DNA of 5,633 nucleotides from a virus (IMGVR_UViG_3300014846_000020), one strand, 5' to 3'; shown: positions 2 to 3,644, counted from the first letter of the stretch. Notes: a model not told the origin generated them from the sequence alone. Program-made: numbers and translations.

Positions 2-679
2 GCTGATAGAAACAGAAGCCACTGGAGCACCTCAAAAACACCATCATACACTAAATCAGTAAGTTGGCAGCATCACCTCCCTGGTGATGATCTGAAACTG
101 CAGACAGCGCAGGATTCAGACAATGGATTTTCGGCGCTTGAACAGGCGCTGCTGCGGTATATCGCCGCCGGTCTTGGCGTTTCCTACGAACAGTTGTCCC
201 GTGATTACTCGAAGGTCAGTTACTCAAGTGCCCGCGCCTCCGCCAATGAGTCGTGGCGCTATTTTATGGGGCGGCGAAAATTTATTGCGGCCCGACTGGC
301 CACGCAGATGTTTTCCTGCTGGCTGGAAGAGGCACTTCTTCGGGGGATTATTCGTCCGCCACGGGCACGTTTTGATTTTTATCAGGCGCGATCAGCCTGG
401 TCACGGGCAGAGTGGATTGGTGCCGGAAGAATGGCCATTGACGGGCTCAAGGAAGTCCAGGAATCAGTGATGCGCATTGAGGCCGGACTGAGCACGTATG
501 AGAAAGAGCTGGCGCTGATGGGCGAGGATTATCAGGACATTTTCCGCCAGCAGGTCAGGGAATCTGCAGAGCGGGAAAAAGCCGGACTCTCACGCCCGGT
601 GTGGATAGCGCAGGCGTATCAGCAGCAGATAGCGGAGAGTCGCAGGCCGGAAGAGGAGACAACACCACGTGAGACGTAA
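2..679 (+). CDS. B: Portal protein, C-terminal portion (5'-truncated by window edge); lambda gpB homologue
   Basis: Frame 2 is open from position 2 to the TAA at 677-679 (I translated 2-193 by hand and found no stops), so the track ORF 194..679 is only the part after an internal Met. The translation LEQALLRYIAAGLGVSYEQLSRDYSKVSYSSARASANESWRYFMGRRKF...GRMAIDGLKEVQESVMRIEAGLSTYEKE closely matches the recalled C-terminus of lambda portal gpB. The gene directly precedes and overlaps the protease gene, as in lambda. Confidence 0.9.
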   Translation, partial: ADRNRSHWSTSKTPSYTKSVSWQHHLPGDDLKLQTAQDSDNGFSALEQALLRYIAAGLGVSYEQLSRDYSKVSYSSARASANESWRYFMGRRKFIAARLATQMFSCWLEEALLRGIIRPPRARFDFYQARSAWSRAEWIGAGRMAIDGLKEVQESVMRIEAGLSTYEKELALMGEDYQDIFRQQVRESAEREKAGLSRPVWIAQAYQQQIAESRRPEEETTPRET

Positions 680-2174
680 TCTTTCACACATTATTGCCGC
701 AGCATTCAATGAACCGCTGCTTCTGGAGCCCGCCTATGCGCGGGGTTTTTTTTTCGCGCTCGGGCGCGAGATGGGGGCAGCAAGTCTTTCGGTACCACAA
801 CAACAGGTACAGCTTGATGCTCCCGGAATGCTGGCTGAAACGGACGAGTACATGGCCGGAGGTAAACGACCGGCCCGTGTTTACCGGGTGGTGAACGGTA
901 TTGCTGTCCTGCCGGTGACCGGCAAGCTGGTGCACCGGCTGGGCGGTATGCGGCCATTTTCCGGAATGACAGGCTATGACGGCATTGTCGCCTGTCTTCA
1001 GCAGGCAATGGCAGATAGCCAGGTGCGGGGCGTACTGCTGGACATTGACAGTCCGGGCGGGCAGGCCGCCGGCGCGTTTGACTGCGCTGACATGATTTAC
1101 CGCCTCCGTCAGCAGAAGCCGGTCTGGGCACTGTGCAATGACACGGCCTGTTCTGCAGCCATGCTGCTGGCGTCGGCCTGCTCCCGACGGCTGGTTACCC
1201 AGACATCCCGTATCGGCTCCATTGGCGTGATGATGAGCCATGTCAGCTATGCCGGTCATCTGGCGCAGGCCGGGGTGGATATCACGCTGATTTATGCCGG
1301 GGCGCACAAGGTGGATGGCAATCAGTTTGAAGCCTTACCGGCAGAGGTGCGTCAGGACATGCAGCAGCGGGTTGATGCGGCGCACCGGATGTTTGCCGAA
1401 AAAGTGGCGATGTATACCGGGTTGTCTGTGGATGCGGTCACGGGGACAGAGGCTGCCGTTTTTGAAGGTCAGTCCGCTATTAAGGCCGGACTGGCGGATG
1501 AATTAATCAATGCGTCGGATGCCATCAGCGTGATGGCTGCGGCGCTGAACACTCATGATACAGGAGGCACTATGCCGCAATTAACTGCAACGGAAGCTGC
1601 CGCGCAGGAGAACCAGCGAGTGATGGGGATCCTGACGTGTCAGGAAGCGAAAGGACGTGAACAGCTTGCCACGATGCTGGCAGGACAACAGGGCATGAGC
1701 ATTGAACAGGCCCGGGCGATTCTGGCCGTGGCGGCACCGCAGCAGCCAGTGGCATCCGCGCAGAGTGAAGCCGATCGCATTATGGCGTGTGAAGAAGCGA
1801 ACGGTCGTGAACAACTGGCAGTAACGCTGGCGGCGATGCCGGAGATGACGGTGGAAAAAGCCCGCCCGATCCTGGCTGCTTCACCGCAGGCGAATGCCGG
1901 ACCATCACTCCGTGATCAGATCATGGCACTGGATGAGGCAAAAGGGGCTGAGGCGCAGGCTGAACAGCTGGCTGCCTGCCCGGGAATGACCGTGGAGAGC
2001 GCCCGGGCTGTGCTGGCTGCGGGATCAGGTAAGGCAGAACCGGTCTCTGCATCCACAACCGCCCTGTTTGAACATTTCATGGCGAACCATTCACCGGCTG
2101 CGGTCCAGGGGGGCGTGTCACAGGCGTCAGAAGACGGTGATGCGGACGTGAAAATGCTCATGGCCATGCCATGA
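669..2174 (+). CDS. C: Head maturation protease / scaffold fusion protein (lambda gpC-like, S49/ClpP-type serine peptidase family), 501 aa
   Basis: The translation matches recalled lambda gpC along the N-terminal two thirds: NLSHIIAAAFNEPLLLEPAYARGFFFAL vs lambda NLPHIASMAFNEPLMLEPAYARVFFCAL; VNGIAVLPVTGKLV; PGGQAAGAFDCADMIYRLRQQKPVWALCNDTACSAAMLLASACSRRLVTQTSRIGSIGVMMSH; GVDITLIYAGAHKVDGN; MFAEKVAMYTGLSVDAV; GLADELINASDAISVM. The start is taken as GTG at 669, preceded by GAGGAG at 653-658 (10 nt spacer), overlapping the portal stop by 11 nt. The start is uncertain to within a few codons. Stop is TGA at 2172-2174. Confidence 0.88.
   Translation: MRRNLSHIIAAAFNEPLLLEPAYARGFFFALGREMGAASLSVPQQQVQLDAPGMLAETDEYMAGGKRPARVYRVVNGIAVLPVTGKLVHRLGGMRPFSGMTGYDGIVACLQQAMADSQVRGVLLDIDSPGGQAAGAFDCADMIYRLRQQKPVWALCNDTACSAAMLLASACSRRLVTQTSRIGSIGVMMSHVSYAGHLAQAGVDITLIYAGAHKVDGNQFEALPAEVRQDMQQRVDAAHRMFAEKVAMYTGLSVDAVTGTEAAVFEGQSAIKAGLADELINASDAISVMAAALNTHDTGGTMPQLTATEAAAQENQRVMGILTCQEAKGREQLATMLAGQQGMSIEQARAILAVAAPQQPVASAQSEADRIMACEEANGREQLAVTLAAMPEMTVEKARPILAASPQANAGPSLRDQIMALDEAKGAEAQAEQLAACPGMTVESARAVLAAGSGKAEPVSASTTALFEHFMANHSPAAVQGGVSQASEDGDADVKMLMAMP
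1359..2174 (+). CDS. nu3: Candidate nested in-frame scaffolding protein (Nu3-like), sharing the C-terminus of gpC; start codon uncertain (alternative ATG at 1572)
   Basis: In lambda, Nu3 is translated from an internal in-frame start in C and equals the C-terminal ~200 aa of gpC (established knowledge). The recalled lambda Nu3 start (MDATRQMFAQKV) aligns to RVDAAHRMFAEKV here, where the equivalent codon is GTT, so the start is not conserved. The nearest in-frame ATG with a Shine-Dalgarno-like element is 1359-1361 (GAGG at 1344-1347, 11 nt spacer). An alternative is ATG 1572-1574, preceded by a perfect AGGAGG at 1562-1567 (4 nt spacer), which would give a 200 aa product. Both are inferences. 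Confidence 0.35.
   Translation: MQQRVDAAHRMFAEKVAMYTGLSVDAVTGTEAAVFEGQSAIKAGLADELINASDAISVMAAALNTHDTGGTMPQLTATEAAAQENQRVMGILTCQEAKGREQLATMLAGQQGMSIEQARAILAVAAPQQPVASAQSEADRIMACEEANGREQLAVTLAAMPEMTVEKARPILAASPQANAGPSLRDQIMALDEAKGAEAQAEQLAACPGMTVESARAVLAAGSGKAEPVSASTTALFEHFMANHSPAAVQGGVSQASEDGDADVKMLMAMP
1608..2030 (+). repeat. Three diverged tandem copies of a ~45-50 aa motif in the scaffold part of gpC, in frame (protein-level repeat; nucleotide copies are not identical)
   Basis: The translation shows ENQRVMGILTCQEAKGREQLATMLAGQQGMSIEQARAILAVAAPQQ, then ADRIMACEEANGREQLAVTLAAMPEMTVEKARPILAASPQ, then LRDQIMALDEAKGAEAQAEQLAACPGMTVESARAVLAAGSG. The conserved Met codons sit at 1623, 1782 and 1923 (spacing 159 and 141 nt). 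Recalled lambda gpC/Nu3 has a single copy (ENSRIMGILNCEEAHGREEQARVLAETPGMTVKTARRILAAAPQ). Confidence 0.6.
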
Positions 2175-2615: not shown

Positions 2616-3644
2616 ATGGGATTGTTTACGACCCGCCAGTTACTCGGTTATACCGAACAAAAAGTGAAATTCCGTGCGCTATTTCTGGAGCTGTTTTTCC
2701 GCCGTACGGTGAATTTCCACACCGAAGAGGTGATGCTGGACAAAATTACCGGAAAAACGCCGGTGGCGGCCTATGTCTCCCCGATCGTTGAAGGAAAAGT
2801 GCTTCGCCATCGCGGTGGTGAAACCCGCGTGTTACGTCCGGGCTACGTCAAGCCCAAACACGAATTTAATTACCAGCAGGCGGTTGAGCGCCTTCCTGGT
2901 GAAGATCCGGCTCAGCTGAACGACCCGGCCTACCGTCGTCTGCGTATCATTACCGATAACCTCAAACAGGAAGAGCACGCTATTGTCCAGGTGGAAGAAA
3001 TGCAGGCGGTGAATGCCGTGCTGTATGGCAAATACACCATGGAAGGGGAACAGTTTGACACGGTCGAGGTGGATTTCGGACGCTCTGAAGGAAATAACAT
3101 TGAGCAGGCCGACGGTAAAAAATGGTCTGAGCAGGACCGTGATACGTTTGATCCGACGCATGATATTGACCTTTACTGCGATCAGGCCAGCGGTCTTGTG
3201 AATATTGCCATTATGGACGGTACGGTCTGGCGTCTGCTGAATGGCTTTAAGCTGTTCCGCGAAAAACTGGATACCCGTCGCGGCTCAAATTCACAACTCG
3301 AAACGGCAGTGAAAGACCTGGGAGCGGTGGTGTCTTTCAAAGGGTATTACGGTGATCTGGCCATTGTGGTGGCGAAAACGTCTTATGTGGCAGACGACGG
3401 TACCGAAAAACGTTATCTGCCGGTGGGCATACTGGTCCTGGGGAATACGGCAGCAGAGGGCATTCGTTGCTATGGTGCCATTCAGGATGCGCAGGCGTTG
3501 TCCGAAGGTGTGGTGGCCTCTTCCCGTTATCCGAAACACTGGCTGACTGTGGGCGATCCGGCCCGTGAATTCACCATGACGCAGTCCGCTCCGCTGATGG
3601 TGCTGCCGGATCCGGATGAGTTTGTGGTGGTGCAGGTGAAATAA
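2616..3644 (+). CDS. E: Major capsid protein (lambda gpE homologue), 342 aa
   Basis: ATG at 2616 with AGGA at 2604-2607. There are long stretches of identity to recalled lambda gpE: YVSPIV, PGYVKPKHE, EDPxxLxDPAYRR, QVEEMQAVxAVLxGKYTM, KEKLDTRRGSNSxLETAVKDLG, VLGNT, YPKxWxTxGDPAREFTMxQSAPLM, DPDEFV. The length is nearly the same as lambda's (341 aa). Confidence 0.95.
   Translation: MGLFTTRQLLGYTEQKVKFRALFLELFFRRTVNFHTEEVMLDKITGKTPVAAYVSPIVEGKVLRHRGGETRVLRPGYVKPKHEFNYQQAVERLPGEDPAQLNDPAYRRLRIITDNLKQEEHAIVQVEEMQAVNAVLYGKYTMEGEQFDTVEVDFGRSEGNNIEQADGKKWSEQDRDTFDPTHDIDLYCDQASGLVNIAIMDGTVWRLLNGFKLFREKLDTRRGSNSQLETAVKDLGAVVSFKGYYGDLAIVVAKTSYVADDGTEKRYLPVGILVLGNTAAEGIRCYGAIQDAQALSEGVVASSRYPKHWLTVGDPAREFTMTQSAPLMVLPDPDEFVVVQVK

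Follow-up and report, generated by a model that had tools for sequence, protein, structure and literature searches.

The DNA stretch IMGVR_UViG_3300014846_000020, analysed at its full length of 5633 bases and referred to here as the window, carries, according to the list of its open reading frames (ORFs), a head-gene block of a lambdoid prophage, in which a homologue of lambda gpC, a prohead protease fused to a scaffold part, is encoded. Results of our analysis indicate that this region is very probably a lambda-type C/Nu3 head-assembly cassette in the form known from phage 21, which would work by the mechanism proposed at the end of this text. Its distinguishing feature is a scaffold part with three tandem, diverged copies of a small module (U1, U2, and U3), of which lambda has one. 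The features that concern the gene and its scaffold part are as follows (positions counted from the first base of the window; aa, amino acids; nt, nucleotides; HMM, hidden Markov model; AF2, AlphaFold2).

669-2174, plus strand: gpC / phage 21 gp5 homologue, S49 prohead protease fused to a scaffold region, 501 aa, GTG start (ORF list)
1562-1567, plus strand: Shine-Dalgarno sequence AGGAGG of the nested scaffold gene, 4 nt before ATG 1572 (read from the sequence; a ribosome-binding site is annotated at the equivalent place in both phage 21 records)
1572-2174, plus strand: predicted nested in-frame scaffold gene, equivalent of lambda Nu3 and phage 21 gene 6, 200 aa, with the sequence of the gpC C-terminus (length of 603 nt and position as those of the phage 21 gene 6 coding sequence in M81255 and OL657228; PHROG 8399)
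1608-1742, plus strand: U1, aa 314-358, orthologue of the single lambda unit, with a long first helix from about nt 1587 (HMM E 1e-23; holds the "Tri1 box" equivalent, 1638-1742)
1743-1766, plus strand: U1-U2 linker, QPVASAQS (low-confidence AF2 segment, Nu3 residues 57-63)
1767-1889, plus strand: U2, aa 367-407, subtype with a short first helix (HMM E 5e-26; "Tri box" equivalent, 1779-1889)
1890-1907, plus strand: U2-U3 linker, ANAGPS (Nu3 residues 104-112, modelled by AF2 as non-helical and with lower confidence)
1908-2030, plus strand: U3, aa 414-454, subtype with a short first helix (HMM E 1e-23; "Tri3 box" equivalent, 1920-2033)
2031-2171, plus strand: C-terminal tail, aa 455-501, one predicted helix (STTALFEHFMAN) followed by a disordered acidic stretch that ends with MLMAMP (AF2 model; tail alignment and HMM)

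The original prediction, made from the sequence alone, held that a unit of the scaffold part occurs three times in frame, with Met codons at 1623, 1782, and 1923. These ATG codons are indeed in frame, at aa 319, 372, and 419, and the units, of 41-45 aa each, are spaced by 53 and 47 aa. Pairwise local alignments among the three units gave scores of 80-101, as compared to 24-26 +/- 5 in 2000 shuffles (z = 11-16), and the observed score was reached in none of the shuffles. When searched with an HMM made from the units, the window protein yields exactly three matches (E-values of about 1e-23 to 5e-26), and the head scaffolding protein family PHROG 8399 matches the scaffold region in three stretches. 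In nucleotide sequence, the units aligned in register are only 52-67% identical to each other, and only about half of the residues that are identical between them are encoded by the same codon. Tandem Repeats Finder reported no repeat in the window, as the copies have drifted too far apart in DNA sequence to be recognised. The low nucleotide identity indicates, as had been proposed, that the expansion is old and is not an assembly artefact.

The explanation of the repeat as a collapse or expansion introduced by assembly or sequencing is extremely improbable. Apart from the general risk that repeats pose, only two singleton relatives (P0001 and P0015, described below) could be such errors, while the longest exact words shared between the units (8-9 nt) are too short to mislead an assembler. 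The same arrangement is present in GenBank records M81255 and OL657228 of phage 21, whose Illumina and dideoxy assemblies were reported to be identical (PMC9119081). Moreover, region 1560-2174 is 100% identical to that of a prophage in the complete chromosome of E. coli O78:H4 strain APEC E12049, with matching gene order, and about a third of complete E. coli genomes (1870 of 5426) carry its DNA, at 2922 places.

The closest characterized relative of the window protein is gp5 of phage 21, which is identical to it in 477 of 501 residues (95.2%), with 24 scattered substitutions and no insertions or deletions, and which contains the nested gene 6 with a ribosome-binding site at the matching position. 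In the complete phage 21 genome of 2022 (OL657228), the pair is annotated as "capsid protease/scaffolding protein" and "scaffolding protein". In the older record M81255 ("Bacteriophage 21 head gene operon"), gene 6 has three repeat_region features, "Tri1 box", "Tri box", and "Tri3 box", with the note "function unknown; putative". These map to positions 1638-1742, 1779-1889, and 1920-2033 of the window, with near-identical peptides, and correspond to the three units. Judging by this mapping, the triplication is already known, as the Tri boxes of phage 21, an identity that had gone unrecognised in the original prediction. The head genes of phage 21 were reportedly first described by Smith and Feiss in Gene in 1993; our statement about prior knowledge is based on the GenBank features themselves.

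The lambda gpC protein, as read from the lambda genome record, has 439 aa and one unit at aa 352-401. The unit HMM finds exactly one copy in it (aa 357-400), BLAST places all three window units on one and the same lambda segment (aa 353-404; E 1e-15, 2e-12, and 7e-10), and a search of lambda gpC with its own unit as a query gave no second match. Thus, the single lambda copy that had been assumed earlier is real. U1 is 57-64% identical to it and is its orthologue. The protease half of the window protein is collinear with that of lambda, as expected from the original prediction (60% identity, few gaps), and the capsid and decoration proteins are nearly gap-free in comparison with their lambda counterparts (62% identity with equal length and 51% identity, respectively). 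In contrast, the scaffold part is only 44% identical to that of lambda over 95 aligned residues, with 141 gap columns. It therefore seems fair to regard it as the main architectural departure from lambda among the products of C, D, and E, which agrees with the earlier view. The two protein lengths given earlier (501 aa vs. 439 aa) are also correct. However, the 62-aa gain is a balance of two units, linkers, and a longer tail, minus a 36-aa stretch at the start of lambda Nu3 that is absent from the 21-type protein; the scaffold alone has 200 aa in the window and 131 aa in lambda. The two systems also share a scaffold gene nested in frame, one homologous unit, collinearity of the C-terminal tail, and the equivalent place in the head operon.

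The in-frame internal start at 1572, preceded by a strong ribosome-binding site, is predicted to yield a separate scaffold protein identical to the C-terminus of the protease. Both phage 21 records annotate this nested gene. It is missing from the RefSeq annotation of the identical E. coli prophage made by the Prokaryotic Genome Annotation Pipeline (locus L005, 4013-4615), where the S49 peptidase alone is listed.

The tail past the last unit is collinear between one-unit proteins, including that of lambda, and three-unit proteins, as indicated by a multi-sequence alignment and an HMM. It follows the motif TAL[DF]x[LF]Mxxx[SA]Pxx[VL] and ends with hydrophobic-x-x-[IM]-P. An HMM built from the tails of single-unit proteins scores the window tail at 13.5 bits, whereas a two-sequence shuffle test of the lambda tail against the window tail was not significant (z = 1); this homology is detectable only with a multi-sequence alignment and HMM. 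The start of the tail helix (FEHFMA, nt 2069-2083) weakly resembles the starts of U2 and U3 (DRIMA and DQIMA; repeat family D1, spacing of 141/156 nt), and this likeness may be a relic of the duplication register.

The predicted structure of the scaffold is consistent with discrete modules. In the AlphaFold2 model of the whole 200-aa scaffold, three separate helical modules, with block means of the predicted local distance difference test score (pLDDT) of about 76-87, are separated by non-helical stretches (residues 57-63 are below pLDDT 50, and the block mean is 64 around residues 104-112). The predicted template modelling score (pTM) of the whole scaffold is only 0.28, and therefore the modules appear to have no fixed mutual arrangement. 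When U1 was modelled alone (nt 1584-1748, with an alignment of 37 diverse relatives), it formed a three-helix bundle of high confidence (pLDDT 91.9, pTM 0.72; helices 2-18, 26-33, and 40-49). U2 (helices at aa 367-372, 381-388, and 395-404) and U3 (helices at aa 414-419, 428-435, and 442-452) represent a shorter subtype, whose first helix has only about six residues. Each unit is thus modelled as a small three-helix bundle, flexibly linked to the next.

The positions that are nearly invariant in the unit family are those of the hydrophobic core, an Arg in helix 1, and the loop motif E-A-x-G-R-E. In U3 of the phage 21 group, the Arg of this loop is lost (the sequence reads GAE), and so is the conserved Arg of helix 1 (which reads Q). 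The third units of the other three-unit proteins, namely those of Gifsy-1, Providencia, and the metagenomic proteins P0123, P0127, and P0130, retain GRE. The unit module recurs behind other phage S49 prohead proteases (template modelling scores of 0.89-0.91), and no Pfam or NCBIfam model or solved structure that covers it was found. The Helix-hairpin-helix family (PF00633) matched U3 only, below its gathering threshold (13.0 bits vs. the cut-off of 24, E 0.097). The only matches found by sequence in the PDB were chance ones to lac repressors, and a Foldseek comparison of the whole 200-aa model with the PDB is meaningless because the model has no fixed inter-module geometry.

A HMMER scan of 1.84 billion representative proteins with the 200-aa scaffold gave 120 hits. 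As a rule these proteins have a single unit, both the lambda-like gpC forms (about 430-450 aa) and the Nu3-like ones (about 115-140 aa). A few lineages with 46-60% identity, including P0123, P0127, and P0130, have three units, and a few others have two. Three units and a tail of the matching type are also present in STM2605 of Salmonella prophage Gifsy-1 (498 aa) and in the gpC homologue of a Providencia alcalifaciens prophage, whose scaffold parts are about 56% identical to that of the window. Across the three-unit proteins U1 is 66-80% identical. Since U1 is orthologous across lineages and the tail is collinear, the extra units lie between U1 and the conserved tail, and the sharing of three units implies that the triplication arose before the head lineages of Escherichia, Salmonella, and Providencia separated. 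The three-unit scaffolds form a distinct lineage with the tail variant FxxFMxxxSP. More widely, the module is found together with S49 prohead proteases in phages as different as those of enterobacteria and a cyanophage. A unit-profile search of a set of 5.8 billion proteins returned only fragments under 80 aa, and a scan of species-representative genomes returned only four loci. One long candidate (P0150; 853 aa, seven stretches) was rejected as an unrelated low-complexity repeat protein.

The comparison of repeat numbers was extended to close relatives, where 2, about 2.5, 3, and 4 units were found among E. coli prophages. Of the 120 best-scoring 90%-identity clusters related to the window protein, 12 have three full units. 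In another 66 the protein is a 482-aa form with about 2.5 units, in which 57 nt between CTGGC repeats, and with them the C-terminal half of U2, have been deleted; at least 1000 contigs carry one protein of this form. A further 25 clusters consist of clean alleles with two units (451-452 aa), which have two different in-register junctions, four-unit alleles of 551 aa form two clusters with a common U3/U2 hybrid junction, and a single 472-aa allele (about 2.5 units; 53 contigs, Shigella) is devoid of the N-terminal half of U2. All insertions and deletions in the repeat region concern U2 or the U1-U2 linker, small deletions in the linker included, while U1, U3, and the tail are spared. By comparison, all 20 isolated phages of a phage collection that cover the region have three units, with no shortened or four-unit allele seen among them.

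Certain other relatives deserve mention. Insertions or deletions in U2 or in the linker are exemplified by the E. coli and Shigella proteins P0029, P0087, P0090, P0102, P0117, P0002, and P0003. Singleton P0001 (657 aa) has a 156-aa duplication that extends from the protease end through part of U3, and in singleton P0015 (468 aa) 20 aa of the Nu3 start region are duplicated; both duplications may be real or may be assembly errors. In some E. coli assemblies, the gpC frame enters tail-fibre-like sequence right after U3 (P0083 and P0084 of 577 aa, and P0086 of 721 aa), which looks like the outcome of internal prophage deletions that fuse head and tail genes.

The commonness of the U2-deleted alleles argues against a strict need for three units. 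It also bears on an alternative to the functional role of the repeat proposed below, namely that the extra units are functionally neutral length, a tolerated duplication, and that U1 and the tail do all the work, as in lambda. Three observations are in line with this alternative: one unit suffices in lambda and in most relatives, E. coli assemblies very often carry a gene from which half or the whole of U2 is missing, and U3 of the 21 lineage has lost a near-invariant Arg of its loop. Yet three units have been retained in frame, and foldable, across Escherichia, Salmonella, and Providencia at about 55% identity. In the 21 group, polymorphism is lower in the units than in the linkers and the tail, and among close relatives it is highest in the U1-U2 linker; neither U1 nor U3 is ever deleted, and every isolated plaque-forming phage of the 21 type in the collection has three units. 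We consider the neutral-length explanation possible, although on the whole unlikely.

The opposite possibility is that the number of units has been adapted to the capsid protein or portal of the 21 type, with three modules in cis replacing oligomerisation and setting the stoichiometry or geometry of the procapsid core. The modelled beads-on-a-string form with flexible linkers would fit a multivalent tether, lambda Nu3 is known to self-associate (PMC3224144), and the three-unit scaffolds are a lineage with a tail variant of their own. Conversely, the capsid proteins of the window and lambda do not differ in length and are similar in sequence, and shortened alleles exist, so that we find this explanation rather doubtful. 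A broader version, to which we give little credence, is that the unit number is a variable, selectable setting, whose alleles would differ in the efficiency or fidelity of assembly or in their visibility to host defences that sense scaffolds, e.g., type I CBASS (cyclic oligonucleotide-based antiphage signalling system). Type I CBASS can be triggered by scaffold domains of the prohead proteases of T1-like phages, and escape mutations map to these domains (bioRxiv 10.1101/2023.05.21.541620). Sensing of this type is a possible selective pressure on scaffold variation in general.

Whether the repeats act in DNA or RNA, as CII boxes or as structured RNA, was also considered. In OL657228, two "CII binding sites" of the form TTGYN6TTGY are annotated within the gene, one of which recurs on the minus strand of the window (1577-1590; TTGCN6TTGC). 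However, a single match of this type is at chance level (0.95 expected per window), and the window lacks the second phage 21 site. Besides, the conservation between the units is at the protein level, with synonymous sites scrambled, and the repeat region of the window has no Rfam match, promoter-like site, or notable inverted repeat. An action at the nucleic acid level is thus very improbable.

In other tailed phages, the scaffold is a mostly helical protein that is present only transiently: it binds the capsid protein through its C-terminal end and is removed before DNA packaging or in the course of it. Those of the P22, SPP1, phi29, and 80alpha type are long coiled or helix-turn-helix proteins, unlike tandem three-helix bundles. 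No sequence or fold relationship of the window scaffold to P22 gp8, SPP1 gp11, phi29 gp7, 80alpha gp46, or the fused scaffold domains of T1-like phages was detected in PDB sequence and Foldseek searches, and their similarity is one of functional analogy only. Similarity to the P22 gp8-type scaffold, with its C-terminal helix-turn-helix coat-binding domain, was looked for and not found. A scaffold-protease fusion has been described in T1-like phages (bioRxiv 10.1101/2023.05.21.541620). Tandem modules of bacterial surface proteins built as three-helix bundles, such as protein A domains, GA modules, and Embp/Ebh repeats, are also among the closest known systems.

The assignment of the protease half and the gene neighbourhood are consistent with a head-assembly role. 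Pfam Peptidase_S49 (PF01343) matches aa 146-293 of the gpC homologue (E 4e-36; 124.7 bits vs. the cut-off of 24.9), and the protein matches the head maturation protease family PHROG 53 (E 4e-222). Its Ser162 (in the sequence ACSAAMLLASA) aligns with Ser166 of lambda gpC, which we take to be the nucleophile, so that the position of the catalytic Ser is conserved. The gene lies between the portal gene and the decoration and major capsid protein genes, also in the identical annotated E. coli prophage, and the gene order in both (portal-C/Nu3-D-E-FI-FII-Z-U) is that of lambdoid prophages. The neighbouring genes, taken from the ORF list, are as follows.

to 679: end of the portal gene
2211-2558: decoration protein gene
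2616-3644: major capsid protein gene
after the major capsid protein gene: FI, FII, Z, and U homologues

The GTG start of the gpC homologue and the end of the portal gene overlap by 11 nt (669-679), as they do in phage 21 and lambda, which suggests translational coupling of the two genes.

The functional interpretation that we favour can be formulated as follows. One reading frame would give two products, the protease-scaffold fusion (gp5/gpC) and, from the start at 1572, the scaffold alone (gp6/Nu3). The scaffold would consist of a short N-terminal segment, three modules arranged like beads on a string by means of linkers rich in Pro, Gln, and Ala, and a conserved tail. The ancestor of the phage 21, Gifsy, and Providencia proteins probably gained two modules by tandem in-frame duplication, and these have since diverged to synonymous saturation. 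We infer that the modules are interaction domains of the transient procapsid scaffold, which may serve self-association or contacts with the portal or capsid, and that the shared C-terminus or its modules bring the fused protease into the shell. In lambda, two-hybrid assays revealed interactions of Nu3 with itself, with C, and with E, and Nu3 is required for portal incorporation (PMC3224144). By analogy with other scaffolds, the extreme C-terminal tail would be the likeliest site of contact with the capsid protein. Three modules per chain would make a longer scaffold, and their multivalency in cis may stand in for the oligomerisation of lambda Nu3; that repeat number changes scaffold length or valency, as originally proposed, is a reasonable suggestion. 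The protease would then degrade everything. Unequal recombination and slippage between the units would account for the alleles with 2, about 2.5, and 4 units, and the middle unit is apparently at least partly dispensable.

As a discovery, the triplication is of small weight, as the Tri boxes are already in M81255 and the gene is among the commonest prophage genes of E. coli. What our analysis adds to the record of the unit is its predicted fold, the lack of a curated family model, and a copy-number polymorphism centred on U2. The pair of lambda and phage 21, together with the natural alleles of two to four units, provides a series for asking what the modules bind and whether valency in cis may take the place of oligomerisation.

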